Below, piece by piece: positions 1-56,509 of a stretch of DNA of 64,000 nt. The notes beneath the pieces were generated by a model. It did no database searches, was not told where the DNA came from, and worked only from the letters and a program-made list of their open reading frames with translations. This DNA is from a virus, in IMG/VR virus record IMGVR_UViG_3300025276_000001, positions 50,100 through 114,099 of that record. One strand, 5' to 3'. Within the stretch, counting starts at the first letter, position 1, and each line of letters starts with the position of its first letter. The position numbers and the translations under genes were made by a program.

Positions 1-3000
1 TATCATTTAAAAGAAGTACAAAAGTTAAATGATTTAGCATACTTAGAACAACTTAAAGAACAAGATCCTTATTTAGATAACAATCATCTTTTAAATAATG
101 AAGCCTTTAAGCAATTATCAAATGACAATCAACAAAGAATATTAAGAATAGCGGGAACTGCAGTTGGTAAGATTAATGCTACTGAAGAAGAAATTAATGA
201 TAACATATCTGGTATATCTTCAAGATCTACATATGGTAACTTTACTCCTCAAGAGTTTGCACTTAATTTAATAAACTCTTATACCGGATTACTAAATACT
301 AAATCAGGAAAGGTAAAGTTTGTAGAATACAAAGATGGTAGAACTGGTAAAATGGTTAGGGTAGCATTAACTGCAAGCCTAATAAGAGTTTTAGAATCAT
401 CAAATACTGGAGATCTAATGTACATGCCGGTTGTTAATGCTGTAAGGTATGCAAGTGGTGACAGAGGATCAAGTGTGTTAACTGATGATGTACTTGTAGC
501 TTTTACTAATTCTATAAAGACAGAGTATACACGTATACAAAGAGAAAGGTCTGATGCTTCTAATAAAAATGATGTAGTAGGTTATAACAAAACAGAATTT
601 AATGAAGAGACTGGTGAAGAAATAATTGGTAGAGCATTTAAATTACATAACTCAGCATTATTATTAGATCCAACAGTTAAAGGTCAATTAGAAGAAATAG
701 CAAATAGATCTGAAAGTGTTTCATTTGAAGAAGCTTTAAAAGAATTAACTATAACACCTAAGCAATTTAGTAATCAACTTAATCAAATACTAGAAGCACA
801 GTTTACTGAATTTAAATCTGAACTTGATCAATTAAATATAAGCAGTGAATTAAGTTTCAATGTAAAAAATGGTTTAACTGCAGATGCTAAATTTAGTGAA
901 GCTGCTGAACTACTTAATTTAAAACAAGATAAAGATTATAACTTAAAGCAAATCTTTTTTAGTGACTGGGTAAATACAAAAGCTATTAATGAAATACTAT
1001 TAGGTGATCAAGCTGTAACATTAAAGAATGGTGTAGATGCAATTAAAAGAGCTAAAGCACAAAATGCAGCTACAGTAACTGCAGCAAGTGTTATTGCTGA
1101 TCCAACAGTAGGTGTAATGCATCCAAATCAAAACTTAAGTGCTTTTGTTTTTGAAGAACCAAGAGGTGAATCTTCACTTACAGGTAAATCAATTGATGAA
1201 GCTGATGCGCAAGCATACTACACTCTTAAAGGATTAAGGTATAGTGAGTTTGGTTTTGGTACATTAACTCCAATGCAAGCAGCATTAATTACAAGATTAG
1301 AACAAGGAGAAGACATTCCTTCTGAAGAAATATTTGGACAGGATGGTTTTGTATCTAATGGAAGCATGATCAATTCTAGAAAGCTAGTTTATGCAGATGG
1401 TAAAACATTTATTAAAATGTCTACGTTTGTGTTGATTCCTGCTTATACTTCTAATCCAGTTAGAGATGATAACGGAAACATTATTGACTGGGTGGCTAAG
1501 CCTAATAGAGTAGCTCTACACAATCTTAGAATGAAGATGGAGGCAGAAGAAGTTCTAACTGAAACAACGTCTATAGCGGCTCCCTTAAGTGCATTTAAAA
1601 TGCTTAAGCAGAACGTATCTTCTTTAGAAGAAATAGAAAATACTGATGATGTCTTTACTGAAAAACCTACTAAGTTAAAAGCTAAGTATCTTGGACTACA
1701 AGTTCCAGGTCCATCAAACAAAATGGAAATGGTTGATCCAACACAGATAAAAAACATAGTTACATCAGAACAGAAAGATGACACACCTATACCAGGAATG
1801 CAAATGAATGGTAAAACTATGACTGTTGGTGATGTAAGAAGAGAATACAATAAAGCTACTAGTCAACGTTTTGAATTGAAGTTTAAAAATAAAAGAAATT
1901 TGACTTTTAGTTTTGAATCAGCAATGAATGAATTAAGCATATCTAAAAAGGTTGGAGCAATAACTCCTAACCTAATGGCATTTTTAAAATTTGCTCAGAG
2001 TGGTTTAAAATCATCTCAATCAAGTAGTAATCAATTAGAATTCTTTAGTACAAAAGATGGAGAGCAACAATATGATTTAAATAATCCTATTACTATAAAT
2101 AACTTTGAGAGTTTATTTTTAAACTATTTAAGTAAAGGAACACTTGCTGAGAAAATACCTGGGCATAGTCTTGTATTAGTATCTGACTTTGGAAGTAATA
2201 TATACAGAAGAGTATTTAGCTTTGATGAAAATGGTATTCCTGATAGATCAGTAGTAATAAGACAAAAAGAATGGGAAAGCTCAACAGGTATAAACTCTAG
2301 TGTAAATAATACAATTCAAAATTCTACACAAATAGATGGTCAACCAACTTGGAAAGAAGTTAAAGTACCCGCAGAAGGTGTAGTAATTCTTGACCGTTTA
2401 AGATCAGCTGTAAAAGAATATGATAGTAAAGGAGTAGCAACAGGACTTAGGTATACAGAAATGATGATGCCTTCTCACTATGCTGATGTAATGGATATGA
2501 TTGAGAATGATCCAAGTGCATCTATACCAGATGTGATTGCTAAGATGTTTGCAATACGTATACCATCTCAAGATAATCATTCAACTATAAATAGTAAGTT
2601 GGTAGACTTTATGCCTGCAATCTATGGTTCAGTAGGTATGTATTCAAGAGAACTGGTAGAGATATCAGGAGCGGATTTTGATATTGATAAAGTGTTTAGT
2701 CAAATAAAAGAATGGTACATAAAGAACAATGAGTTTGTTGAGTATGGTAAGACTACTAATGAACGTGAAGCATATGAAAACTATATTGAGTATGTAAAAA
2801 TAAAAGTTAGTAGAAAAGGAACAATATACAATGAAGCATACCAACTAAAAGATTCAGACAATCAATCAATTAGAGAAGGTAACCCTTCAGCGGAAGTTGT
2901 ATCTGATGAATTAGGGCCAGTATATGATCCAGCTATTACTGCATTAGAGATGTTAGGTTTACCAATATCATTTGAACAATATAAAGAATACAAAAATAAA

Positions 3001-5841
3001 AACGGTGAACCTTATGAAGCACCACACAGTAATAAAATTTTAGATTATAAGTATGCTCTGATGGGTAATACAGCAGTAACTGAAGAAGCTTTAGTTGGAG
3101 AACTTCCAATATCATATACTCCGGCAAGTCTAGATATTCTTGAAGATATATGGAAAGAGTTTAGTGATGAGACAGAAGATAGTTCTACTAGATCTGAGTA
3201 TCTAGTTAAGCGTTCTAGAGAAGATAACATTGATATAGATAACTTATTAGGTAAGATAAAAGCTTTTGCTGCAAATAAAGGTGCGGCCATTGGTGCAGTT
3301 GTTTCTCCTAATCAAGCATTGAGTTTACTAACAGAATATAAAATTCCTTTGGGAGGTATAAATGCTCCGGTAATTGAAATAGATGGGGTTACCTTTAATA
3401 GTTTTGAATACTTAAGAGAAAGATTAGCGGATGGTAAACTAGGATTAAGAAAACAAGATATCATTTCTTCTCTGATAACAATGGCAACAGATAATGCTAA
3501 AGAAAGATTAGTTGCTAAACTAGGCCTAAACAAAGAAGCGTTAGCTTTAGTTACAAATATGGTTGCATTAGGTATGCCTATAAAGACTGCTCTACTGTTA
3601 ATCAATCAACCGTTTATTCAGGACATTTATACTGAAGCAATAAATAAAAAAGAGAAGACTGATCCGGGAGTAGATAGTTTGGTTAAGGCACTACTAAGTG
3701 ATAAGAAATATAAGGATCTTCAAATGGTAGATGTTACATCAGGTATGATGCGTGAAGGTTTGGATGTTGAATTATCTGATGCACAAACAATGTCTATCCT
3801 TCTTACTTTCCAAGAAGCATTAAAGGTCTCTAAGTTTACAAAAAACATGAGAGCTGTTTCTGATTTAACAAATGGTTTAGGAAAAGATATTGCAAGTGTA
3901 AACTACAAGAGAGAACAAATGGATTTATTGTTTGAAGAAAATGCAATAATGGATCTTTCACCTATCTATAAAAGTGATACATGGCAGTCTAAATACTTAG
4001 AGGTTTTTGATCAGATATATGATGAGTTGTTGCCTGCTACTTTCTTAAGTGCAAGTCCACAGTTTACAGATATTATGGATGAGTTATTAAAAAGTATTGA
4101 CACACAGAAAATGGAATTTAATTCTGAAGTTCAATCTAAGATTTCTAAAGATTTATTATCATATATAACAATTAAAGCATATCAAAACAATGTAGGTAAT
4201 GGAACAACAGCTTCTATTGCTAATTTAAATAATGACTTTTTATATCCATCTGGTAAAAACTCTATCAATAATATAGTAGAGAACTTAAGACTAACAGAAG
4301 CTGGAAAGAATAACTTCTTTTTAGATACGTTTGCTTTAAGTATTCCGGCAAGTGATAAAAGTAACTTTAGTGGAATGAATCTTTTAATGGCTAATACATT
4401 TAGAAGTTTAAATGCATCACAGAAAGTTGATTTACAAACGTCATTTGCTAAATTGTATGGGTCATTAGAAACTAAAGATGATGCATTATCAATCATTAAT
4501 TATATGATGGTGAAGGATGGTCTTCAGTTATCCTATGGTACATTACTAGAAGCAATATCTCCATTTACAATGAGCTCATATTTAGATCATATAGCAACTG
4601 CTAACTTAGCATTGCGTGATAGTTCTGATTCTAAAATGAATGAAGTTTTTGGAATGACACTAGAAGAAATGAAAACAGACTTTAGAGATGGTTACTTACA
4701 GTCTAATATAAATAATGCTTTGCTTAATACTTTCTCAAGCGCAAACAAAGATGTAAATGTAAAAGATGATGTTGTAAGTGTTAAACTTACAAGTCAACTA
4801 GTTACTAAGGATGTTAACTACATCAGAATAAAAACTATTTCAGGTGATACAGCTTTCTATAAGACATATAAGGTAAATGAAGATTTATCTAATAAAGATG
4901 TACGTACTTTTGAATTGGTTGATACATATGGATCCAACCAACAGAACGGAATAGGTTTTATGTTTGGGCCAAGATCAACATATGCTGAGGTAAGAAACAC
5001 AATTACTGAGCTACATAAAGATCCTATTGAAAGTAATAATCAGTATTCACAAACTGAAGATAGTGATTTATCTCAAAAAGAAAGAGATGTTGAAAAAGTA
5101 ATACAACAAGCTGATGAAGTTGAAATAGTGATTGGATCAGCTAGACAAGGTGGAACAAAAGTAGAAGTAGATGGTAAAAATGTAGCAGATGTAAAACCTG
5201 TTACTGAACAACCTTCTTTTAGAACTATTACATATACACCAACTGGAAAACCTAAACAAGAGTATACTATTGATGGTGATAGAATACTTAATAAAAAAGG
5301 TATTGAGGTTTTTAAATCAATGAGTAAAGACAGACTTAAGATATTTGCTAATCTAGCTATTAAGGAAGGTAGAGCTAAGGTTGTTACATATAGAGGTAAC
5401 AGTTATGTAGTTAATGACAAGAATCAAATAATGTCAGTGCGTACTGGTTTAGAAATGAAGTGGGAGGAAAACAATGGTAATAGAATTGCAGTGTTAAACC
5501 TAGCACAAGATCCACAGAGTATGAACAGACAAGAGTTTGAAGATGCATCTGAGGAAGTTGCAGATGAGTATACTCCTGGTGCTCTATACGGTGCTGCTCT
5601 CCTAGACAATCAAATGACATTGGAGTTTGAAGCAGAAGATAGCGTTAAGCTAACAGAGTTTTGGGATAATGAAGTTGAAAAATATCCAGAAAAAAAGGCT
5701 ATTTTTGCTAATAACAAAATGCCTACTTATAGCAGCATGGTTATGTTTTATAACACACAGAAATTAAAAGGATTCTTTCAAGGAACTGCAGAACAAAGTT
5801 CAGAAGAGGAGTTTATGGAATCATTAAAATGTTTAAGATAA
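1..5841 (+). CDS. Virion-packaged crAss-type RNA polymerase / giant cargo protein (5'-truncated by window)
   Basis: Frame is open from base 1, upstream of the track start at 352. IRIPSQ and GADFDIDK (DxDxD catalytic loop, 2674-2688), plus ATDNAK, as in phi14:2 gp66-type RNAPs. Confidence 0.9.
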   Translation, partial: YHLKEVQKLNDLAYLEQLKEQDPYLDNNHLLNNEAFKQLSNDNQQRILRIAGTAVGKINATEEEINDNISGISSRSTYGNFTPQEFALNLINSYTGLLNTKSGKVKFVEYKDGRTGKMVRVALTASLIRVLESSNTGDLMYMPVVNAVRYASGDRGSSVLTDDVLVAFTNSIKTEYTRIQRERSDASNKNDVVGYNKTEFNEETGEEIIGRAFKLHNSALLLDPTVKGQLEEIANRSESVSFEEALKELTITPKQFSNQLNQILEAQFTEFKSELDQLNISSELSFNVKNGLTADAKFSEAAELLNLKQDKDYNLKQIFFSDWVNTKAINEILLGDQAVTLKNGVDAIKRAKAQNAATVTAASVIADPTVGVMHPNQNLSAFVFEEPRGESSLTGKSIDEADAQAYYTLKGLRYSEFGFGTLTPMQAALITRLEQGEDIPSEEIFGQDGFVSNGSMINSRKLVYADGKTFIKMSTFVLIPAYTSNPVRDDNGNIIDWVAKPNRVALHNLRMKMEAEEVLTETTSIAAPLSAFKMLKQNVSSLEEIENTDDVFTEKPTKLKAKYLGLQVPGPSNKMEMVDPTQIKNIVTSEQKDDTPIPGMQMNGKTMTVGDVRREYNKATSQRFELKFKNKRNLTFSFESAMNELSISKKVGAITPNLMAFLKFAQSGLKSSQSSSNQLEFFSTKDGEQQYDLNNPITINNFESLFLNYLSKGTLAEKIPGHSLVLVSDFGSNIYRRVFSFDENGIPDRSVVIRQKEWESSTGINSSVNNTIQNSTQIDGQPTWKEVKVPAEGVVILDRLRSAVKEYDSKGVATGLRYTEMMMPSHYADVMDMIENDPSASIPDVIAKMFAIRIPSQDNHSTINSKLVDFMPAIYGSVGMYSRELVEISGADFDIDKVFSQIKEWYIKNNEFVEYGKTTNEREAYENYIEYVKIKVSRKGTIYNEAYQLKDSDNQSIREGNPSAEVVSDELGPVYDPAITALEMLGLPISFEQYKEYKNKNGEPYEAPHSNKILDYKYALMGNTAVTEEALVGELPISYTPASLDILEDIWKEFSDETEDSSTRSEYLVKRSREDNIDIDNLLGKIKAFAANKGAAIGAVVSPNQALSLLTEYKIPLGGINAPVIEIDGVTFNSFEYLRERLADGKLGLRKQDIISSLITMATDNAKERLVAKLGLNKEALALVTNMVALGMPIKTALLLINQPFIQDIYTEAINKKEKTDPGVDSLVKALLSDKKYKDLQMVDVTSGMMREGLDVELSDAQTMSILLTFQEALKVSKFTKNMRAVSDLTNGLGKDIASVNYKREQMDLLFEENAIMDLSPIYKSDTWQSKYLEVFDQIYDELLPATFLSASPQFTDIMDELLKSIDTQKMEFNSEVQSKISKDLLSYITIKAYQNNVGNGTTASIANLNNDFLYPSGKNSINNIVENLRLTEAGKNNFFLDTFALSIPASDKSNFSGMNLLMANTFRSLNASQKVDLQTSFAKLYGSLETKDDALSIINYMMVKDGLQLSYGTLLEAISPFTMSSYLDHIATANLALRDSSDSKMNEVFGMTLEEMKTDFRDGYLQSNINNALLNTFSSANKDVNVKDDVVSVKLTSQLVTKDVNYIRIKTISGDTAFYKTYKVNEDLSNKDVRTFELVDTYGSNQQNGIGFMFGPRSTYAEVRNTITELHKDPIESNNQYSQTEDSDLSQKERDVEKVIQQADEVEIVIGSARQGGTKVEVDGKNVADVKPVTEQPSFRTITYTPTGKPKQEYTIDGDRILNKKGIEVFKSMSKDRLKIFANLAIKEGRAKVVTYRGNSYVVNDKNQIMSVRTGLEMKWEENNGNRIAVLNLAQDPQSMNRQEFEDASEEVADEYTPGALYGAALLDNQMTLEFEAEDSVKLTEFWDNEVEKYPEKKAIFANNKMPTYSSMVMFYNTQKLKGFFQGTAEQSSEEEFMESLKCLR

Positions 5842-5848
5842 AATAGAT

Positions 5849-8800
5849 ATGGCAAAATGTCCCAACGTAAATGCAGCAGAGTACAAAGCACTGCAAGCAG
5901 TTTATAAAACTGAAATTGAAACAAACAGTATTATTAATTCTTGGCAGAACGCTAATGAAAGTGATAATTTTCCAACAGCTGTTCAGGCGGCAAAGTTTGT
6001 TAAAACTACAAAGGCTGTCTATGCACTTAAACAAAAGCAGTTTGGTGAAAGTGTTATCAGTAACTTAGTTAATAAGAAACTAATCCACATGTTTAATGGA
6101 AACTATCTTGTTAATGTTGCATACCCAGGTACACAAGAATATAATGCGCAAGCTGTCAAGGATAATTTAAAAGCTATATATAAGTATTTAGATATTAATA
6201 AAATTCCTTTAGAGACTATTGACTTTGCTGCAACAGATAAAACATTTAAAGTAACAATGCTTAATAATGTTTTTACACCTAAAGATATATTAGAATCTAC
6301 ACGTGGGTGGGATACTTCTAGATCACAAAAGGTTGTAGGCCATCTTAAAAGAATGTTTCCGGGGGTTGAGGTAAGATTAGTATCAGTTAAAGAAGCTAAA
6401 AGAATACATGATGGTTTACCAGCATGGAGAAAAACATCAGGTAGCTTTGCTAATGTAAATTCATTTTACTATGATCAAGTAGCTTATTTAGTTAAAGGAA
6501 GAGTAACAAATGAAACAGCAATAGAAGAGATGCTTCATCCATTCATTGATGCTATTAAGGTAGACAATGAATCTTTATTTAATAACTTACTTGAAGAAGC
6601 TAAAGTAAACTTTCCAGAAATGGTTCAGCAGATTACTGAAGCTTATAATAATAAGAGAAACTTTAATGACTTAGATAGAAACTTAGAAATAGTAACACAA
6701 GCATTAACAAGACATTTTAATAATGAATATGAATCACAACCTACTAATTCTTTTTTAAAGTTAATTCAAGATGCATTAGAATGGTTTAAGAGTGTTATAG
6801 AAAACTTACATGAATATGTTACTGGTAATCCTTTGCCTGTTTCTGCTATAAGTAAGAATGCAACGTTTACTGATATTGCTAAATTATTAAATACAGAAGG
6901 TATTAGGTTTAAGTTAGAAAAAAGAGCAAGTGCAAAACTTAGATATTCTTTTACTCCAGAAGTACAAAGTATTTTACAAGGTGCACGTTCTGTTGCTAAC
7001 GGTATTCAGCTAGAAATACTAAATAAGATGTTTGGTATAGCTGAAAAAGATAGTAGAAATAATGATAGGTTATATGCTAATGCGGCTGAGCCAACTGATG
7101 CAGGTCCTAGAATAGTATTCAATCAAAAGGATCACACTTATATAGATGTCAATAATCCTAATGGTCAGGTGTATGCTTCTGCAACAACTGCAATAAAAGG
7201 AAAACTTAGTAATAAAGAAGGTGAAGCAATCATTAGAAGAGATGAAGCACTACAAGCTTTAAGTGATAAAGGTCAAAAGCCTAATGCTAAATTTACTGAG
7301 AAATATAAAAAAGAAATTGCTAATGGAAAAGCAGATGACATCCAAAAAGAAAAAGATGTTAAGCTTAACCTAGATCTGGGTAATGATGTTGACATGATTG
7401 TTGAGTCAATAGTTAAATTAATGAATGGCTATGAAGGAAACATTAATACTGAATTAGAAAAGGCTATGGATAGCATGGCTGTACTTAGCCGTGATCAAGC
7501 AAGAGAATTTTTTGGTGCAATGAAAGTTGCAATAAGAGACTTTATGCCTATTGATGGAATAGCTCTTTCTCAAGTAGTTGTATATGATGAAGCAACAAAA
7601 CTTGCTGGTACTGCAGATTTAGTTATAATTGATAGGAATGGTAAGATTAGAATATTTGATTTAAAGACTAGTAAGAATTCTATAGAGAAGAAAATTTCAT
7701 TATCTCAAAGTGCAGGTAGAAGAGGTTTAGGAAGTTATGAATTTAGTGAATGGACTTTACCAGCTGATAGTAGGTTAAGAAGTGAGAGTAAAGAAAAGAT
7801 AGGTAGAGAAGTAACTAAGTTGAGTACAAAGGGTCAACATAATTTACAAGTAAATCTTTACAGAAGAATGTTTGAGAACATGGGCTTCTCAGTTTATGAA
7901 GGTTCATTTGCAGCATCTACATTTCATGTTCAATTGGATATAGCTAATAAAGGTGAAAAACAAGAGTATAAAGGAACTTGGGATTATGAGGGTAAAGTAG
8001 ATCATTATGAAACTAATATATCTGAAAATAGTGTTTATGTAGACATGCTTATTCCGGCTACTGTTGATAACAGAAACAAGAAAAAACTTGATGCTAAACT
8101 TGCAGAACAACCTGAAGCTCCATATAGAGGAGATCAAGATAAAATGGCTCAAGAAGAAATTGAATCTACTGTTGAGGAAGAAGTAGCACAAGCATTATAT
8201 CCAGAAATGAATACAGTATTTGGTGCGTTAGAATCTTATAGTACTGCATTAGATCAAGCACAAAGAGGAGACCTAAATACTAAGAAAGTATATTCTAAAC
8301 GTTCTAAAGAACAAAGGTTATTGGACATTGCAAAATTACAAGCATATATTACTAGTGGTATTAGCAGAGGTCCTAAAGCACAATCAAAGATCTATACTGG
8401 ATTATTAAGTAATGCTTTAAAAGACATAAGAGAGTTTACTGATTATGTTACTGATCCTAATAATGTAACAGGTGATCCTGAATACATTGGTTTTGTATTA
8501 AACTTTAATAGATTCCTTGCAACTTATGAACCTTTATATGCAATAGAAGGGTCTAAGGAATTAAATGCAACACAACAACAGTTGGTGTTAAATTTAAAAT
8601 TAGAAGTTGATAAATTAATTGGTGGTACTAGATTAGTCTCAGAAGGTAGAGAGGGTATTATCAATGATGCAATTTTTAATTATGTAAAAGAAACAGTAAG
8701 ACTTAGATCATCTAAACAATTTGGTGTAGAAGGTAGTGGGTTTACTGAAGCTGATTTAATTAAAGAATTAACTATAGTTAATGATATCCCTGGTATTGAT

Positions 8801-11800
8801 TTACAAACCAGAGACATGGATACTTCTACAGATACTTTACTTGCTGTAGTAGCTAAGATATACAAATCACAAAAACAACTTTTACTAGACAGGATTCAGT
8901 ATAGAGAAAAAGTAATTAGAACTGCAGGTAATAAAGTATTAATGCTTAGCGGTACTAATAAAGAAAATGCATATAATTATATGCAAAACTTTAATGAGGA
9001 TGGAACACGTAATGGTACTTATGTTAAACCTATTGGTAGTAAGTTTTATGACAAACAAAAAGAACTAAGAGCTGCAACTAGAGATGCTGATAATGTACCA
9101 TATACTTATTTCAATATAAGTGATAAGAACCAAGCATCTGAAGAAGAGCTGGAATACAATATAGATTTAGCAAATAAAAAAAGAGCTGCATCTCAGTTTG
9201 GATTTGCTGAAAGAGTTAATGAAAACGGACAAAGAATTGATGGAGAATACTATTCATATAACCAAGAGTTTATTGATGCAAGAAATAAATTTGAATACTT
9301 TGTAAGTAATGATGCATATGAAGGACGTTGGTTTAAAAAACAAAGAGTTGATAGTGTAGAGTTTAATGCTTATGAAGCTAGATACTATAACATTACCAAA
9401 TATAATCAAGCACTTAGAAATCCTAATGGTGAAGCTACTGGTGTAATCATGCAAGGTGTTGATGGAAGGTTTGTTAAACCGGAGTATAAAGATAAGAATC
9501 AGTTTAGACTAGACAAAGAAGGTAATAGGATAGAAGATTTACGTAGTGATAAATACAAAGCAATATTTGATCCTGCTAAAACTGATGCATTGTCAATAGC
9601 ACAAAGAGAGTTTTATGTTTTATATGTAAAATTCTTTGAAGAAGAGTTGCTTAGAATGTTGCCTGATAACGTTAGGCAATCAATGCTAGGAAAGAACCCT
9701 GTTGTAAAAAGCAATCTTTTAGATGATCTTAAAAATAGACCAAGTATAGTTTCTAGAATGTATGCAAGTAGTGTTAGAGGAGTTAAGAATTTATTCCAAG
9801 AAACTTCTGTACAAAAAGCTGTTCTGCTTGATGAGGTGGGTGACATAACTAATAGTCTACCTATTTTTATGGTAGGAAGCCCAAGGAAAGAAGGGGATAT
9901 GGAAGCTGTAGAAGCAAAAATAATAATCCTTGAAGAGAAGTATAAAAAGAATACTGTTAATAGAGAAACTTATAAAAGTCAGTTAGCAGTATTAACTGGT
10001 GAATTAGCAAAAATAAGAAGTAGACCTTTAGCAAGTGAGCTGAGTGGAGATCTAGCAACAAGTTTAATAAAGTTTAGTGCAATGGCAGAGCACTATGAAG
10101 TTATGGGTCAAATAGAAGATACCTTAACTGCAATACAAAGAGTAGTTAATAATAGACAGTATGAACCGTCTGATGTTAATACAAAATTTGTAGGGCGTGG
10201 ACAGAACTTAATAAATAAAGCTAAGAAACAAGTTGACGCAGCTGTTAGTGGTGTTGAACAAAGTGGATCAGTTGGATTTAAAAAAGAAACAAGTGGTGAT
10301 TCTAATACTGTAAGAAGATTAAGAAAGTATATGTCAATGGTATACTATGATAATGAATTAATCACAAAAGGTGCAGTAGATAAAATAGCTGATCTTTTAA
10401 TTCAACAATCTTCTCTTGCTTATGTAGCCTTTAATCCTTTTGGTAACTTTAATAACTACCTTATGGGTAGGATTAACAACAACATTGAGATGTTGGGTGG
10501 TAGATTCTTTAGTAAGAAAAACTTTCTTAGAGCGGGTGGTGAGTGGAATAAGCAAGCTATAACCGGCCTTGTTGAAAGAACTGGTTCTGGACTTAGAGAT
10601 TTAGCTGATGTATCCACTGCAGGTCTAGCAGGTATTGGTAAGTCTAATTATGATCCTGACTTTGCAAATAATAAGTATGAAGCATTCACACAGCTTCTAA
10701 GAATGATGGATGATTCTACAGACATACGTGAATCTGGTAAAGACTCAGATGGTAAAAGCATATGGGAAAGGTTTAAAGAATGGGGTTATGTAATGCAAGA
10801 TGCTGCAGAGTACAATGTACAAAGTAGAGTAGGTATTGCTATGATCATGGATACTAATTTAATAGATGAAGCAACAGGAGAAACATTATCTATGTATGAT
10901 GCATTTAACTTTAATGCTAAAACTAAAGAGTTAGATTTAGAAAGTGGTAAATGGTCAGTATTAAACAAAGACGGATCTACTCAAGAATACAATGATGCAT
11001 TCAGATATGACTTAAGAAATAAAATTAGAGAAGTCAACAAACAAATTCATGGTAACTACGCTGCAGAAGATAGAATGGTTATTCAATCACATACGCTTGG
11101 TAATTTAGCTGCTCAGTTTCATAAGTGGGTTGCTCCGGCAATTAGAGCTAGATTCCAAACAGAATACTTTGATGAAAATCTTGGATGGATGGAAGGTAGA
11201 TATAAATCTTGGTTTAAGTTTTTGGCTTTCTATTTTAAGAATGTAGTAGAAGCTAAGGGTAACATGAAAGAACTTACTGAAACCTTCTTAAAAGAACAAG
11301 ACGGTTATGATGGTAAAGGTGGTCAAGCGGATCAAAAGGGTAAAAATAGACTTTTTGGATTCTATAGAACAATGGGTGAGATGTCTATTATAGCTGGAGT
11401 ATTTTTAACTAATCAACTTTTAGCAGGTTTATTAGAAGGAGATGATGATGATAGTGATACTGAAAAAAGAATTAAAAACTTAACTAAGTATCAAGGAGAT
11501 AGACTGTATAAGGAATTAGTATTATTTGCTGTTGTTTTACCAGCATCAATGGAACAGATATTTCAAATGGCTAAGTCACCAATTGCTACTACAAGAACAA
11601 TGGGTGAATTAGGTCAAGCTTTAAGTATGACAATATGGACACCATATGAATTAATTACAAAAGGTAAAGAAGGTTATGAGGCAAACTCAGAATACGTATA
11701 TCAAAACAATCCTAATAAAGGACAGTGGAAACTAGGGAAAGAATGGAAAGATGTTATTCCAATTCTATATACTATACAGAAATGGAAGAATGCTCTTAAA

Positions 11801-11824
11801 CTAGATAAGTTCTGGATTAAATAA
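5849..11824 (+). CDS. Giant virion cargo/ejection protein with zincin-like and PD-(D/E)xK nuclease domains
   Basis: 1991 aa, adjacent to the RNAP. EEMLHPF (6524-6538) is zincin-like; AGTADLVII...IFDLKT...QVNLY is nuclease-like; hydrophobic C-terminal helices. Confidence 0.75.
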   Translation: MAKCPNVNAAEYKALQAVYKTEIETNSIINSWQNANESDNFPTAVQAAKFVKTTKAVYALKQKQFGESVISNLVNKKLIHMFNGNYLVNVAYPGTQEYNAQAVKDNLKAIYKYLDINKIPLETIDFAATDKTFKVTMLNNVFTPKDILESTRGWDTSRSQKVVGHLKRMFPGVEVRLVSVKEAKRIHDGLPAWRKTSGSFANVNSFYYDQVAYLVKGRVTNETAIEEMLHPFIDAIKVDNESLFNNLLEEAKVNFPEMVQQITEAYNNKRNFNDLDRNLEIVTQALTRHFNNEYESQPTNSFLKLIQDALEWFKSVIENLHEYVTGNPLPVSAISKNATFTDIAKLLNTEGIRFKLEKRASAKLRYSFTPEVQSILQGARSVANGIQLEILNKMFGIAEKDSRNNDRLYANAAEPTDAGPRIVFNQKDHTYIDVNNPNGQVYASATTAIKGKLSNKEGEAIIRRDEALQALSDKGQKPNAKFTEKYKKEIANGKADDIQKEKDVKLNLDLGNDVDMIVESIVKLMNGYEGNINTELEKAMDSMAVLSRDQAREFFGAMKVAIRDFMPIDGIALSQVVVYDEATKLAGTADLVIIDRNGKIRIFDLKTSKNSIEKKISLSQSAGRRGLGSYEFSEWTLPADSRLRSESKEKIGREVTKLSTKGQHNLQVNLYRRMFENMGFSVYEGSFAASTFHVQLDIANKGEKQEYKGTWDYEGKVDHYETNISENSVYVDMLIPATVDNRNKKKLDAKLAEQPEAPYRGDQDKMAQEEIESTVEEEVAQALYPEMNTVFGALESYSTALDQAQRGDLNTKKVYSKRSKEQRLLDIAKLQAYITSGISRGPKAQSKIYTGLLSNALKDIREFTDYVTDPNNVTGDPEYIGFVLNFNRFLATYEPLYAIEGSKELNATQQQLVLNLKLEVDKLIGGTRLVSEGREGIINDAIFNYVKETVRLRSSKQFGVEGSGFTEADLIKELTIVNDIPGIDLQTRDMDTSTDTLLAVVAKIYKSQKQLLLDRIQYREKVIRTAGNKVLMLSGTNKENAYNYMQNFNEDGTRNGTYVKPIGSKFYDKQKELRAATRDADNVPYTYFNISDKNQASEEELEYNIDLANKKRAASQFGFAERVNENGQRIDGEYYSYNQEFIDARNKFEYFVSNDAYEGRWFKKQRVDSVEFNAYEARYYNITKYNQALRNPNGEATGVIMQGVDGRFVKPEYKDKNQFRLDKEGNRIEDLRSDKYKAIFDPAKTDALSIAQREFYVLYVKFFEEELLRMLPDNVRQSMLGKNPVVKSNLLDDLKNRPSIVSRMYASSVRGVKNLFQETSVQKAVLLDEVGDITNSLPIFMVGSPRKEGDMEAVEAKIIILEEKYKKNTVNRETYKSQLAVLTGELAKIRSRPLASELSGDLATSLIKFSAMAEHYEVMGQIEDTLTAIQRVVNNRQYEPSDVNTKFVGRGQNLINKAKKQVDAAVSGVEQSGSVGFKKETSGDSNTVRRLRKYMSMVYYDNELITKGAVDKIADLLIQQSSLAYVAFNPFGNFNNYLMGRINNNIEMLGGRFFSKKNFLRAGGEWNKQAITGLVERTGSGLRDLADVSTAGLAGIGKSNYDPDFANNKYEAFTQLLRMMDDSTDIRESGKDSDGKSIWERFKEWGYVMQDAAEYNVQSRVGIAMIMDTNLIDEATGETLSMYDAFNFNAKTKELDLESGKWSVLNKDGSTQEYNDAFRYDLRNKIREVNKQIHGNYAAEDRMVIQSHTLGNLAAQFHKWVAPAIRARFQTEYFDENLGWMEGRYKSWFKFLAFYFKNVVEAKGNMKELTETFLKEQDGYDGKGGQADQKGKNRLFGFYRTMGEMSIIAGVFLTNQLLAGLLEGDDDDSDTEKRIKNLTKYQGDRLYKELVLFAVVLPASMEQIFQMAKSPIATTRTMGELGQALSMTIWTPYELITKGKEGYEANSEYVYQNNPNKGQWKLGKEWKDVIPILYTIQKWKNALKLDKFWIK

Positions 11825-11924
11825 TTTAGACAAATTTACATAGAAAAATCTTCTAAGTTTAAATAAGAATGACTATATTATTGTATAAACCTACAGTAGT
11901 ATAGTCATAACTTAATACTTGTAT

Positions 11925-13139
11925 ATGAAAAAAATTATTGTCTTTTTACTTTTATCATTATTTATAACAAGTAATGTATCTGCACAAGGAAAGTTCTTTA
12001 GTGGTTTATATAAGGACTTTTTAAAATACGGTACCGTATACGGTGCTGGAGATATTTCTAATTCCATTGAAGCTGCAGAGCCCACTTACTTTGTAAGAAC
12101 AGGCCAAGACGGCAGTCTATATTCCATTCCTGTTGTGGTTGATAATACTCCTAATTATCCCTTTGATTATAGATACGGAATTGGTATTAGAAAGTTAGCT
12201 AGATTTAGTTATGAAAGAAAGCCTAAAAACTTTTATGACGGAACAGAAAATCAGCTAGCATTTTCAGCACCAACATCTGCTTTCAAAGGTTTAGAATATC
12301 AAATACATTTTGAGAAGGAGAGATGGAGAGGGGAGAATTTTACAAACCACCATTTATTTGTAAAGCACACTGGTAAATATCATATTTTTAAAGTTCAAAG
12401 TAGAGAGGTAGATAAAATCAATTTAGAATTCTTTTCAATTGAAGCTAGAGCTAGGTTACCACTTGGTGAGAAGTTTTCAATATCAGCAGGAGTTATAGCA
12501 CGTGGACACGAAAGAGCATATGGTTATAACCCAATAGAGATATGGTTAAATGAAACTACAGAATATATAAACCCAGATGGTACAACTGAGGAGTTTCCAA
12601 CTAACCCTTGGTATACTTTAGGATTCTTATATGGTTATTCTGATCACTTCACAACTTCTACTGATGCTGCTACAGGAGAAGAAACTCAAGACTGGATTTG
12701 GAAAGATGCTGATGGAAACATAGTAGCACATACTGATTTAGAGTTTAGAGAAAATATATTTACTGACTTAATGAATAGGTACAATGGAGAACAATGGGAG
12801 CTCTTAGATCCTTGGGTAGAGATTGCTCCTATTATAGGTGCTGATTTTTATCATTATAAAGGTAACTTTTGGTTACATGCATATGCTAATTATATATTAC
12901 CAATGCACAGATATATAAAAGGTGATGAAGACTTTTCATACCTAAACAGAAACAACTACGGTGCAGGAGGTTTAAATCCAGAGTCTGAATTAGAACAATG
13001 GAATGATTATTCTGCTGGACTTAGTTTTGGATTTAAAGTAAATAAAAGCTTAGGGGTTTTTGTACAGGGAGAATACTCTAAGATGTGGGATAGTGAATTA
13101 TATCAGACTACATTTGGTCTTAATTATACATTTAGATAG
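11925..13139 (+). CDS. Secreted putative outer-membrane beta-barrel protein
   Basis: Sec signal MKKIIVFLLLSLFITSNVSA|Q, many amphipathic strands, C-terminal beta-signal-like TTFGLNYTFR. ATG 11925 preferred over TTG 11919. Confidence 0.65.
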   Translation: MKKIIVFLLLSLFITSNVSAQGKFFSGLYKDFLKYGTVYGAGDISNSIEAAEPTYFVRTGQDGSLYSIPVVVDNTPNYPFDYRYGIGIRKLARFSYERKPKNFYDGTENQLAFSAPTSAFKGLEYQIHFEKERWRGENFTNHHLFVKHTGKYHIFKVQSREVDKINLEFFSIEARARLPLGEKFSISAGVIARGHERAYGYNPIEIWLNETTEYINPDGTTEEFPTNPWYTLGFLYGYSDHFTTSTDAATGEETQDWIWKDADGNIVAHTDLEFRENIFTDLMNRYNGEQWELLDPWVEIAPIIGADFYHYKGNFWLHAYANYILPMHRYIKGDEDFSYLNRNNYGAGGLNPESELEQWNDYSAGLSFGFKVNKSLGVFVQGEYSKMWDSELYQTTFGLNYTFR

Positions 13140-13141
13140 AT

Positions 13142-13855
13142 ATGAGAACGTTAATTATTTTTATGATAGTATTATTAAGTAGTTGTTCTACTTATAAAGT
13201 AAGTACAATGGGTCACGATCCAGAATACAGTCTTAATCTACCTGATAATATAACGATTGATACCCTTAACTATAGACAATTACAGTGGAAGCTTAGAACA
13301 GACTTTAACTTTAGATATGATTTTGCAGTCTATGCAATGAATCAGCCATTTAATTATAGGTTTGGTAGATACAATAGATTTGGTATGTTTAATCCTCAAT
13401 ATAGTAGCACACAGTATTGGATGAATTGGGCATTTGGAAATACTAATTTTAATATGTGGGACAACTGGGGTTACCCATATAGTAATAACTATGTATGGAA
13501 TGGATGGAGTAATGGATATGGATATAATGCATGGCACCAATTTGGTGGAATTTATGGTAGAAGAATGTCTATACAAGATAGGCGAGGTATAGCTGCTATG
13601 GGAAATTCAAGAATATCTAGAGAAACGACTGCTGTTATTCATGGTAATAACAATACTAGAGTGAGAGTAAAAAGAACTAATGTTAAACCAAAAGTAGTAA
13701 TTAGAAACAAACCTATAAAAGTATATAAGCCTATACCTTTTAGAAATAATTCAATTCCAATTAACAATACTAGAAGTAATAGAGTAGTACGTAACAACAA
13801 TAATAATAGTACAGTAATTAAAACAGTAAGTAGGAACCCTACTAAAAATCAATAA
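13142..13855 (+). CDS. Lipoprotein with W/Y/G/N-rich middle and R/N-rich basic tail
   Basis: MRTLIIFMIVLLSS|C lipobox; low-complexity composition. Confidence 0.7.
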   Translation: MRTLIIFMIVLLSSCSTYKVSTMGHDPEYSLNLPDNITIDTLNYRQLQWKLRTDFNFRYDFAVYAMNQPFNYRFGRYNRFGMFNPQYSSTQYWMNWAFGNTNFNMWDNWGYPYSNNYVWNGWSNGYGYNAWHQFGGIYGRRMSIQDRRGIAAMGNSRISRETTAVIHGNNNTRVRVKRTNVKPKVVIRNKPIKVYKPIPFRNNSIPINNTRSNRVVRNNNNNSTVIKTVSRNPTKNQ

Positions 13856-13860
13856 TAATA

Positions 13861-14145
13861 ATGGCCCAGGAGATAGGAGAAGGAACTAAAGTAACTTTAG
13901 ATCTAAAGACAATAGGAATGATAGTAGGCTTTACAGTTTCATTATCATCAATGTATTTTATACTACAAGCAGATATTGCTCAAGCAATGGTTTTACCAAA
14001 ACCAAGTATAGAAAGAGTTGAGTATGATCTGAAAGATGAACTAATTAGACAAACAATTATGGACACTCAAGAAGATGTTGATGCCATATTAGAAAAAATG
14101 GATAAAATGGAAGAGCGTATGTATGAGCTCATGAAAGGTAAATAG
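13861..14145 (+). CDS. Small single-TM coiled-coil protein
   Basis: TM segment TIGMIVGFTVSLSSMYFIL followed by a heptad-like C-terminus. Confidence 0.6.
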   Translation: MAQEIGEGTKVTLDLKTIGMIVGFTVSLSSMYFILQADIAQAMVLPKPSIERVEYDLKDELIRQTIMDTQEDVDAILEKMDKMEERMYELMKGK

Positions 14146-14147
14146 CA

Positions 14148-14564
14148 ATGAAAAAATTAATTTTTGTATTCATATTATTAGTGTGGAGTCAGTTACTTCA
14201 TGGCCAATCATGGATTGATGATACTAATTTTGGTGATACTATAGCTGATAATTCTACATTTGATGATACTAAAAGCATTATCATAATAGAGTTTTATGCA
14301 GATTTTAACAAACAAAATGCTTTCCATGAATGGGAAAAATTGGATGAAATAGATGGTGTTAAATATTTCAGATGTGATATTACAAAAGCTCCTTCTGCTA
14401 AGAAAGAGTATAGGATCAGAATGGTTCCTACAATACTAATCTTTTCAGAAGGAGAAGCTTTTATAAAATTTAAGGCCAAGGCAGGACTAGACTTACTATG
14501 TCCAGTAGACTTACCTAAAATGCTTAGAGCAATAGAAGTAGTTAAGAGAGAATCACAATTCTAA
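14148..14564 (+). CDS. Secreted thioredoxin-fold protein lacking CxxC
   Basis: Signal peptide ending G|Q; IIEFYADF, CDI and YRIRMVPTILIF thioredoxin signatures; no WCxxC. Confidence 0.7.
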   Translation: MKKLIFVFILLVWSQLLHGQSWIDDTNFGDTIADNSTFDDTKSIIIIEFYADFNKQNAFHEWEKLDEIDGVKYFRCDITKAPSAKKEYRIRMVPTILIFSEGEAFIKFKAKAGLDLLCPVDLPKMLRAIEVVKRESQF

Positions 14565-20043: not shown

Positions 20044-20445
20044 ATGAGCGGAATTTTAAGTAAAATATTTTCAGGAGGAGCAACTAAGTTAGTTGAAGGA
20101 ATAGGTGGTGTCTTAGATAACCTTATTACTTCTAAAGATGAAAAGTTAGCCGCTGAATTAAAGATAAAAGAACTAGTCTCAAAGTATGAGACAGACATGG
20201 AGAAAGAAATATCAGCACGTTGGAATGCAGATATGAATTCTGATAGTTGGTTAAGTAAAAATGTAAGACCTATTATATTAATATTCCTAGTAGTATCAAC
20301 AGTACTATTAGTTTTTATTGATGCAGGAGTAATTGCATTTGATGTTAAAGCTTCTTGGGTAGATCTATTACAGTTAGTCTTAATTACTGTAATTGGTGCA
20401 TACTTTGGTGGTAGGTCATTAGAAAAAAGAAATAAAAAACAATAA
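20044..20445 (+). CDS. Holin (3TM/GTA-holin-like)
   Basis: RWNADM-SDSWLSKNVRP, two TM helices, AYFGGRSLEK. Confidence 0.75.
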   Translation: MSGILSKIFSGGATKLVEGIGGVLDNLITSKDEKLAAELKIKELVSKYETDMEKEISARWNADMNSDSWLSKNVRPIILIFLVVSTVLLVFIDAGVIAFDVKASWVDLLQLVLITVIGAYFGGRSLEKRNKKQ

Positions 20446-24316: not shown

Positions 24317-25966
<1,650 letters not shown>

Positions 25967-52482: not shown

Positions 52483-53400
52483 ATGCTAATTAAAAAAGGA
52501 GACAACAGTCTTAATGTAAAACATCTACAGCAAAAATTAGGTTTAAAAGATGATGGTATCTTTGGTAGAAATACTGAAAAGGCTGTTATTAGATATCAAC
52601 TATCTAAGTCCCTGAGAGTTACAGGTATAGTAGATAGTGAAATGTGGGTATTACTTTTTAATGCTAAAGCTGGTGCACTAGAAGCAATAGATGAAGACAC
52701 AGATACACAAGGACAATACTATAGAACTTCATATGATCAATTGATTCATAAACATTATTTACCTAAAGGAGAATATATAGCAGGACCAATAGAGAATGAA
52801 TATATTTTTTTACACCATACAGCAGGATGGCATAATCCATACAACTGTATTGATCAATGGGGTAGAGATAGTAGAGGAAGAGTAGCTACTGAATTTGTTT
52901 TAGGTGGTAAAAATCACAAAGATGGTTCTAGTGAATTTGATGGTGTAATGGTACAAGCATTTCCAGAAGGAGGATATGGATGGCACTTAGGTAGAACACA
53001 ATCAGGTTGGATGAATAGACATTCTGTTGGTTTAGAGATTTGTTCTTTTGGTCAATTAGATAGTGATAAGAAAACTTACATAGGTACTACTCCATGTGAG
53101 GAAGAAATAGCAACACTGAAAGAACCATTTAAAGGAAGCCTTTATTACCATAAGTATTCAGATGCACAAATCAAAGCAACTGAAAAGTGGATTAGGTATG
53201 TAGGTGAAAGAGATGGTATTGATGTTAGAATAGGTTTAAAACAATTTATTCAAAAGCATGGACCAATTAAAGGTTTTGGATTTCAAATGGATGCTTGTTT
53301 AGGAAACGTAAAAGGATTATTAACTCATACTAATGTTAGACAGGATAAATCTGATTGTTATCCAGACCCTGACTTTGTAGATATGATCTTAAGTTTATAA
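52483..53400 (+). CDS. Endolysin: peptidoglycan-binding domain + N-acetylmuramoyl-L-alanine amidase
   Basis: VKHLQQKLG..DGIFG..TEKAV..YQ..GIVD; IFLHHTAG, SVGLEI, LTHTNV...DC. Confidence 0.85.
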   Translation: MLIKKGDNSLNVKHLQQKLGLKDDGIFGRNTEKAVIRYQLSKSLRVTGIVDSEMWVLLFNAKAGALEAIDEDTDTQGQYYRTSYDQLIHKHYLPKGEYIAGPIENEYIFLHHTAGWHNPYNCIDQWGRDSRGRVATEFVLGGKNHKDGSSEFDGVMVQAFPEGGYGWHLGRTQSGWMNRHSVGLEICSFGQLDSDKKTYIGTTPCEEEIATLKEPFKGSLYYHKYSDAQIKATEKWIRYVGERDGIDVRIGLKQFIQKHGPIKGFGFQMDACLGNVKGLLTHTNVRQDKSDCYPDPDFVDMILSL

Positions 53401-56224: not shown

Positions 56225-56509
56225 ATGGCACAACAAGTAATACCAGTAGGGAAAAAGATTCTGATAAAACAAAAAAAAGCAGCAACAAAAACTAAATCAG
56301 GTTTATATCTACCAGAAGCAGCACAAAAAAAAGAATATAAAGGTACTGTGGTAGGCTTAGGACAATCAGTAGAAGAAATAAAGATGGGTGATGTTGTTCA
56401 ATATACAGAACACTGTTTACCAACTAGAATGCAACATGATGGAGAAGAACATTTGCTTATCCAAGAAGGAGATGTATTTGCAATACTAGTTGATATAGCG
56501 GATGTATAA
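56225..56509 (+). CDS. groES: Co-chaperonin GroES
   Basis: PVGKKILI, KTKSGLYLP, GTVVGLG, GDVV, EGDVFAI. Confidence 0.9.
   Translation: MAQQVIPVGKKILIKQKKAATKTKSGLYLPEAAQKKEYKGTVVGLGQSVEEIKMGDVVQYTEHCLPTRMQHDGEEHLLIQEGDVFAILVDIADV

Follow-up and report, generated by a model that had tools for sequence, protein, structure and literature searches.

The IMG/VR virus record IMGVR_UViG_3300025276_000001 is a genome of 114,099 bp that carries direct terminal repeats and is rated 100% complete; the window analysed here comprises its bases 50100-114099, a stretch of 64,000 nucleotides. At positions 11925 to 14564 of this window, four open reading frames (ORFs) on the plus strand follow one another with gaps of 2, 5 and 2 nt (11925-13139, 13142-13855, 13861-14145 and 14148-14564). 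They encode a predicted outer-membrane beta-barrel protein of 404 residues, a lipoprotein of 237 residues, a bitopic inner-membrane protein of 94 residues with one transmembrane (TM) segment, designated TMcc, and an exported thioredoxin-fold protein of 138 residues. A preliminary description, made from the letters of the DNA, had reported four genes 2-5 nt apart, each with an envelope-targeting signal, and both the ORFs and the signals are borne out by our analysis. The conserved unit consists of three of these genes, those for the barrel, TMcc and the thioredoxin-like protein, and in many other phages this trio is embedded in a cassette of lysis genes.

The full trio was present in 81 of the 87 viral loci with a barrel ORF, and the other six loci are cut by contig ends. 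Its genes are usually separated by 1-9 nt or overlap, and the association is kept when the barrels are only ~35-45% identical. A permuted order of TMcc, thioredoxin-like gene and barrel also occurs; eight such loci really contain TMcc/thioredoxin-like pairs on both sides of the barrel, with an M15 endolysin gene after the second pair (L060, L062, L068, L069, L071, L072, L074 and L079; the example in L062 spans 7303-10270). Tandem TMcc genes are found 3' of the barrel in L065, L075, L077 and L081. The TMcc/thioredoxin-like pair seems to behave as a duplicable unit.

The 237-aa lipoprotein (13142-13855, plus strand) combines the lipobox LLSS-C with a core rich in W, Y, G and N and a tail rich in R, N and K, and is the only credible lipoprotein of the 114-kb genome. 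It has no match in Pfam, NCBIfam or PDB, and its sole PHROG match is weak (E 0.013). The preliminary description had taken all four genes for one module. Three of them do co-occur elsewhere, but the lipoprotein family comprises only 85 clusters and homologues are absent from nearly all loci, so that a four-gene module was rejected. In other phages, the slot between barrel and TMcc is empty or is filled by unrelated lipoproteins (~190 aa or 61 aa) or a TMcc paralogue, and the lipoprotein of the window appears to be a lineage-specific addition in this variable slot, not a conserved member. Its supposed likeness to lipoproteins encoded beside FadL-like barrels found no support either, given the missing family matches and the 12 modelled strands of the barrel. 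FadL, of the FadL/Toluene_X family, has 14 strands; the barrel has no Pfam match at E<=1, and FadL is not within the top 50 structural matches, an absence that does not by itself exclude the family.

The occupants of the variable slot have features of their own. The ~190-aa lipoproteins start with C-[ST]-K-[DE]-[DE] past the lipobox (L004:9212-9787, L011:2096-2659, L016:7347-7928 and L022:9206-9778), a start resembling the signal by which Bacteroidota export lipoproteins to the cell surface; the lipoprotein of the window (C-S-T-Y-K) is devoid of it. The 61-aa ORF (L036:7728-7913, also in L037-L039) pairs the lipobox LLFGC at its N-terminus with a hydrophobic segment at its C-terminus, and would have the build of a unimolecular spanin, though a very short one.

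The barrel gene (11925-13139, plus strand) starts with a Sec signal peptide at residues 1-20, MKKIIVFLLLSLFITSNVSA, ending in NVSA and followed by QG at the cleavage site. An N-terminal hydrophobic region is present in 62 of 64 barrel homologues, 55 of which have Gln close to the cleavage site. A Gln in this position agrees with the documented Q-rule of Bacteroidetes (PMC5837995), and its occurrence at the barrel cleavage sites supports a Bacteroidota host for this marine phage. Gln at position +1 of both Sec substrates had been pointed out before and is indeed seen in the barrel (QG) and the thioredoxin-like protein (QS). The C-terminus of the barrel, GLNYTFR, conforms to G-[LIV]-N-[YF]-[TS]-F-[KR] in 58 of the 64 homologues. 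It is beta-signal-like; where a beta-signal ends in an aromatic residue, Phe is second to last in 57 homologues and Lys or Arg last in 60, and more distant members end with F or I. Mature barrels contain 0-1 Cys.

The AlphaFold2 model of the barrel, built from an alignment of 31 diverse homologues, displays 12 long antiparallel strands at moderate confidence (pLDDT 73.6, pTM 0.64). All 64 Foldseek matches listed at E<=1e-3 are outer-membrane barrels, with low TM-scores. VIA-align, with a stated background of Z = 7-8, places 12-stranded barrels at the top (KdgM Z 12.7, EstA 12.5, NanC 11.9, Tsx 11.5, LpxR 11.2, NalP 11.2 and OMPLA 10.3). Hence, the 404-aa protein models as a closed antiparallel 12-stranded outer-membrane beta-barrel, in agreement with its first description as a barrel and not as a soluble protein. 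If the model holds, the trio presents a case of a phage making its own barrel dependent on the host's beta-barrel assembly machinery (BAM). No family was matched in Pfam, PHROG, NCBIfam, PADLOC or the PDB sequences; for barrel, lipoprotein and TMcc the libraries returned only weak matches, such as phrog_1009 (E 0.011) and PspC (16 bits against a cut-off of 104).

Two segments outside the strands stand out. The long turn between strands 2 and 3 (residues 91-121, 12195-12287) is the most conserved part of the barrel outside the strands (R93, F94, Y96, E97, K99, Y104, G106 and E108) and has low pLDDT in the monomer model, as expected of a docking site; with a topology deduced from the strand count, it is predicted to face the periplasm, where a partner protein might dock to it. 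The alpha/beta insert of ~100 aa in loop 4 (residues 196-296, 12510-12812) folds confidently when modelled alone (pLDDT 92.9, pTM 0.76) and, by the same strand count, is predicted to be exposed on the cell surface. Its sequence is strongly conserved across lineages and not diversified. No relative was found among solved structures (best Foldseek E 0.049; best VIA Z 3.3 over 48,161 chains), which makes the insert a confidently predicted domain without a solved structural relative. Within the barrel, conserved charged residues line the polar, lumen-facing side of the strands (E124, R175, R177, R193, H195, H318, D361, K371 and E381).

The barrel thus shares its fold class of 12 strands with KdgM, NanC and Tsx, with the translocator domains of autotransporters and FapF, and with LpxR and OMPLA (Z 10-12.7). 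It differs from all of them by the absence of sequence similarity, by the autonomous loop domain and the long conserved turn, and by its restriction to viral DNA. Two functional readings arise from these likenesses. The barrel might be an outer-membrane enzyme that hydrolyses phospholipids or lipid A, as OMPLA and LpxR do, and thereby weakens the outer membrane or alters the surface; both enzymes are among the top structural matches, and the barrel has His, Glu, Asp and Asn residues that vary little or not at all. The active sites of OMPLA and LpxR lie on the lipid-facing side, whereas the conserved polar residues here face the lumen, there is no His-x-Ser motif, and no sequence similarity to either family was detected; we consider such an enzyme extremely improbable. 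Alternatively, a substrate-specific channel of the KdgM/NanC/Tsx type could raise nutrient or nucleoside uptake in the infected cell, and the thioredoxin-like protein would then bind the substrate in the periplasm. The best structural matches and the charged lumen agree with this, as does the frequent proximity of ribonucleotide reductase (RNR) genes. However, 12-stranded fold likeness is uninformative on function, as autotransporter barrels, LpxR and OMPLA score about equally, and neither the obligate TMcc partner nor the position among lysis genes would be explained. The RNR argument also fails. In many loci the trio has RNR alpha and beta as neighbours, yet RNR alpha is nearby in 34 of 95 (36%) cassettes that have no trio and in 18 of 46 (39%) that have it, indicating that the link reflects cassette position only; a link to nucleotide metabolism was rejected, and we regard a channel function as very unlikely.

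TMcc (13861-14145, plus strand) consists of a conserved 16-residue N-terminal tail, a Gly/Ser/Thr-rich TM segment at approximately residues 17-38, a Pro-containing linker and an acidic amphipathic helix. The tail and the TM segment are highly conserved. Residues ahead of the TM segment are rich in Lys, and this charge distribution suggests an N-in/C-out topology. Paralogues that share the motif EFRIKWPRGE[ML]GSLP and are 110-114 aa long (L157:4106-4438, L172:5614-5946 and L184:412-756) occur alone inside lysis cassettes that contain neither a barrel nor a thioredoxin-like gene.

The 138-aa thioredoxin-like protein (14148-14564, plus strand) has a signal peptide cleaved between LHG and QS, the sequence FNKQ in place of CXXC, and the cis-Pro motif RMVPT. 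It matches Pfam Thioredoxin (PF00085) with 29.1 bits at a cut-off of 23.5, and thioredoxin domains of the PDB at E 6.5e-6, with FNKQ aligned where WCxxC would be. CXXC is absent from all 45 unique homologues, in which the site reads [WY]-A-x-F-N-x-x-N-[ACS]-[FY], while the signal peptide and the cis-Pro motif, R-M/T-x-P-T/H, are kept in 45 of 45. Judged by its sequences, the family is one of exported thioredoxin folds that, having no CXXC, should be incapable of redox chemistry, and therefore the protein most likely acts as a binding or adaptor subunit. There are precedents for thioredoxin serving structurally, without thiol chemistry, in T7 DNA polymerase processivity and in f1 assembly. These phages recruit the cytoplasmic thioredoxin of the host, whereas the protein of the trio is phage-encoded, exported and has lost CXXC family-wide. 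The trio would define a conserved family of exported thioredoxin folds without redox cysteines that serve as structural subunits.

The trio is very common in marine metagenomes and unannotated in Pfam, PHROGs, NCBIfam and GenBank phage records. At 90% identity, the barrel forms 2,360 clusters and TMcc more than 5,127, none of them named, so that chance can hardly explain the observation. Metagenomes or viruses are the source of every one of these clusters; many derive from Tara Oceans samples, and those of the Atlas are 100% viral. Phages in GenBank gave no DNA or protein match to the barrel, and two distant barrels used as queries (P0166 and P0204) retrieved no viral loci. A scan of genome contigs with the barrel found no cellular homologues. 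The corresponding scan with TMcc matched only three contigs, which carry the trio genes, of a Tara Red Sea metagenome-assembled genome labelled 'Candidatus Woesearchaeota archaeon RS366' (PBPJ01000041, PBPJ01000055 and PBPJ01000031; L082, L083 and L084), which are most likely phage contigs in the wrong bin; the first of them also contains a giant gene of 2,766 aa. One TMcc cluster includes an NCBI contig of 2.88 Mb that encodes the TMcc protein P0317.

Comparison with the terminase indicates how the trio is inherited. The terminase of the window is 78-80% identical in G003 and G004, the true relatives of its phage, is 32% identical over partial length in G001, and is undetectable in G002 (complete, 164 kb) and G005. 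The barrel identities run the other way, being higher in G001 and G002 (70-71%) than in G003 and G004 (65-66%). Barrels this similar across unrelated terminases show that the trio moves horizontally from one unrelated phage lineage to another. We rejected the trio as a core gene set of a single phage lineage, because the terminase is unrelated or undetectable in the carriers G001, G002 and G005.

The genomic setting of the trio was examined by clustering the flanking genes over 58 dereplicated loci and annotating representative members. The recurring layout is a small TM protein, a 2-TM protein, barrel, TMcc, thioredoxin-like protein, endolysin, a Phage_holin_4_1 holin and a multi-TM protein; L012, for example, combines the 2-TM gene, the trio, an amidase and a holin. 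A recognised endolysin gene lies just 3' of the trio in 38 of the 58 loci, and belongs to one of three mutually unrelated types (Peptidase_M15_3 in 19, PG_binding_1 with Amidase_2 in 9, phrog_33083 in 10); in 5 further loci DUF5675 occupies this slot. The endolysin gene follows the thioredoxin gene directly (13-32 nt in the example loci) or past an intervening 2-TM gene, and the trio has the holin, the 2-TM protein and further small TM proteins on its flanks. Retrieval via the holin or the 2-TM gene added 46 further loci, in which the trio stands in line between these genes within the cassette. The preliminary description had placed the module directly downstream of ejection-protein genes. In the window giant genes do precede it, but the arrangement is lineage-specific (giant genes upstream in ~20 of 58 loci) and the lysis cassette dominates. 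That description could not have seen the lysis context, because in this genome endolysin and holin lie elsewhere. The endolysin gene (52483-53400, plus strand; PG_binding_1 and Amidase_2), which belongs to the amidase family of the trio loci (hidden Markov model E 4e-102), is 38 kb away, although the same family directly follows the trio in other phages, and the holin gene (20044-20445, plus strand; phrog_3427, GTA_holin_3TM) is also apart from the module. No other cassette families besides the amidase were found in this genome.

Based on these features, we favour, with a probability of roughly 40%, the reading of the trio as a lysis-associated accessory complex that spans the envelope and acts at the outer-membrane step. 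Once exported by Sec, the barrel would presumably be placed in the outer membrane by the host BAM, exposing its novel loop domain on the surface and its conserved turn in the periplasm. TMcc would sit in the inner membrane, N-in/C-out, with its amphipathic helix in the periplasm, where the thioredoxin-fold protein would serve as binding or adaptor subunit. We propose that the three proteins bind one another and so join inner membrane, periplasm and outer membrane in a single complex, which would be made together with holin and endolysin and would act at the last step of lysis. After peptidoglycan degradation, the complex may help to breach or detach the outer membrane. This is the task that spanins perform in phages of other Gram-negative hosts, and here a barrel would replace the lipoprotein as outer-membrane anchor. 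The preliminary description had proposed a phage-built complex over outer membrane, periplasm and inner membrane. The barrel, TMcc and the thioredoxin-like protein agree with this proposal, though the lipoprotein, which is no conserved member, does not.

The closest known systems are the two-component spanins, lambda Rz/Rz1 and T4 PseT.3/PseT.2, as defined by Kongari et al. 2018 (PMC6139136). Like them, the trio resides in lysis cassettes beside endolysin and holin (in the 38 of 58 loci, not in the window), its genes are tightly linked or overlapping, and TMcc would combine an N-in/C-out topology and a helical periplasmic domain with an outer-membrane partner, so that the periplasm could be spanned. 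TMcc thus has the build of an i-spanin, and its paralogues in cassettes without the trio lend further support to a role in lysis, as does the absence of lipobox ORFs from the seven cassettes scanned. Unlike two-component spanins, the trio has as obligate outer-membrane partner a beta-barrel of ~400 aa in place of a small lipoprotein, and has a third obligate subunit, the periplasmic thioredoxin fold. A lipoprotein, as expected of an o-spanin, adjoins TMcc in the window, where it and TMcc are the only lipoprotein and the only i-spanin-like protein of the genome; most loci have none, and the rest have unrelated families. The trio is spanin-like in its proposed action and stands outside the spanin family, with no obligate lipoprotein partner and no Cys.

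Several observations weigh against a lysis function. Periplasmic Cys is present in ~96% of two-component spanins (PMC6139136), in contrast to none in 49 unique TMcc sequences, and the periplasmic part of TMcc, ~55 residues, is short for an i-spanin. For membrane fusion, a barrel of 400 aa whose surface domain is conserved and whose lumen is charged would be unnecessary. In the lineage of the window, the trio is not beside endolysin or holin. Ninety-five of 151 related cassettes have no trio, the 2-TM gene directly abutting the endolysin gene, and barrel and TMcc are both absent from two 100%-complete genomes (191 and 176 kb) with the same cassette, in searches whose positive controls worked. 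The trio is therefore an optional accessory, and in these relatives lysis proceeds without it. Replacement by canonical spanins was considered for the relatives and not found, as the seven cassettes scanned contain no lipobox ORFs and hence no canonical spanin. Finally, genes without a role in lysis can adjoin lysis genes, lambda bor being an example.

The optional character and the horizontal mobility among phages with unrelated terminases could also be explained by superinfection exclusion or protection of progeny. In this case, the surface domain of the barrel and the variable lipoproteins would mask or remodel the receptor or block DNA ejection, or keep released virions from adsorbing to cell debris, with TMcc and the thioredoxin-like protein acting in periplasm and inner membrane like T4 Imm and Sp. 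Essentially all exported proteins of this phage belong to the module, and the adjacent slot with its interchangeable, unrelated lipoproteins would suit such a function. One neighbouring lipoprotein family (f12, after the endolysin in other loci) faintly matches the Cor superinfection-exclusion protein (phrog_1119, E 0.008). No match to Cor/Llp-type exclusion lipoproteins in PHROG or Pfam was obtained for the 237-aa lipoprotein of the window, and its apparent homology to f12 was rejected as compositional only (BLASTP E 0.006 over 13 residues). Phage outer-membrane proteins or lipoproteins dispensable for lytic growth include lambda Lom and Bor, T5 Llp and Cor. Like these, the trio would place an exported protein in the host outer membrane, and it is optional, mobile and sometimes located beside lysis genes; unlike these single genes, it has three obligately linked components within the cassette and not at its edge, and is highly conserved across lineages. 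Neither the trio proteins nor the lipoprotein of the window show any sequence relationship to them. Exclusion is most useful early, whereas the tight spacing in line with holin and endolysin points to late co-expression. The strong conservation of the surface domain also speaks against an exclusion role, and three obligate components distributed over the envelope would be more than receptor masking requires. There was no PADLOC match and no significant PHROG match. Superinfection exclusion and uptake were among the functions suggested by the preliminary description; we favour neither and consider exclusion unlikely.

The conservation of the tail and TM segment of TMcc allows for one more explanation, namely control of lysis timing. 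By means of its cytoplasmic tail and its TM segment, whose Gly/Ser/Thr-rich composition resembles a signal-anchor-release domain, TMcc might serve as an antiholin or modulate the holin, while barrel and thioredoxin-like protein relay information from the envelope or the outside, akin to lysis inhibition. Holin-like genes immediately adjoin TMcc-family genes also in loci that have no barrel, T4 RI is similar in size and build, and an optional accessory would suit a regulator. However, no homology to RI or other antiholins was detected in Pfam, PHROG or NCBIfam, TMcc nearly always comes with barrel and thioredoxin-like protein as its obligate partners, and we know of no antiholin that needs an outer-membrane barrel. 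Timing control is, in our view, distinctly unlikely. Should either exclusion or timing prove true instead, an obligate phage module in three compartments would still be unusual.

Returning to the lysis-associated complex, spanins are rarely recognisable in phages of Bacteroidota. The trio offers a testable candidate for the outer-membrane step of their lysis or for a new envelope manipulation. A tentative generalisation is that many marine Bacteroidota phages have no spanins and carry in their place an unrecognised class of lysis proteins: an envelope-spanning three-part machine in which a BAM-inserted 12-stranded barrel with a surface domain of novel fold is the outer-membrane anchor, coupled via an inactive periplasmic thioredoxin to a helical inner-membrane protein. 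If true, phages would have, besides spanins and disruptin peptides, a third means of breaching the outer membrane, and one abundant in the ocean virome.

Two further proteins were observed in the cassettes. A conserved protein of ~340-450 aa, with 3-5 TM segments and a long coiled coil, follows the holin (L010:11153-12304 and 18 other loci); it matches no family, occurs whether or not a cassette has the trio, and might be one more lysis component that awaits characterisation. Just after the trio, a 142-aa protein with a signal peptide and the end GFGLRF (L036:8834-9262, also in L038 and L012) looks like a small 8-stranded outer-membrane protein, with a Pfam OMP_b-brl match of only E 0.042.

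Besides a run of giant ORFs (up to 4,755 aa) and RNR genes, the genome of the window, with a GC content of ~32%, encodes a terminase, a portal protein, a 3-TM holin and an amidase endolysin. Upstream of the barrel gene, seven giant ORFs stand in a row (2100, 1438, 1073, 917, 1133, 4755 and 1991 aa; genome 21454-61923, corresponding to window 1-11824 and upstream), and the 1991-aa protein contains a PD-(D/E)XK or exonuclease-like segment at residues ~417-680 (phrog_298, E 5e-10). In the 100-nt gap separating its gene from that of the barrel, the sequence contains an inverted repeat at 11869-11908, with 9-bp arms (ATGACTATA and TATAGTCAT) and a 22-nt loop. Promoter and terminator scans around the module remained at chance level, with a tool that has no Bacteroidota promoter model. 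On the other side, the RNR alpha gene is convergent with the thioredoxin-like gene; their stop ends overlap by 4 nt (14561-14564), and no terminator-like hairpin lies between them. Further downstream, a 544-aa ORF on the minus strand (24317-25951) has a GroEL-like start and a 94-aa ORF on the plus strand (56225-56509) has the look of a GroES-type co-chaperonin, both judged by eye, and together they would be a phage-encoded chaperonin pair.

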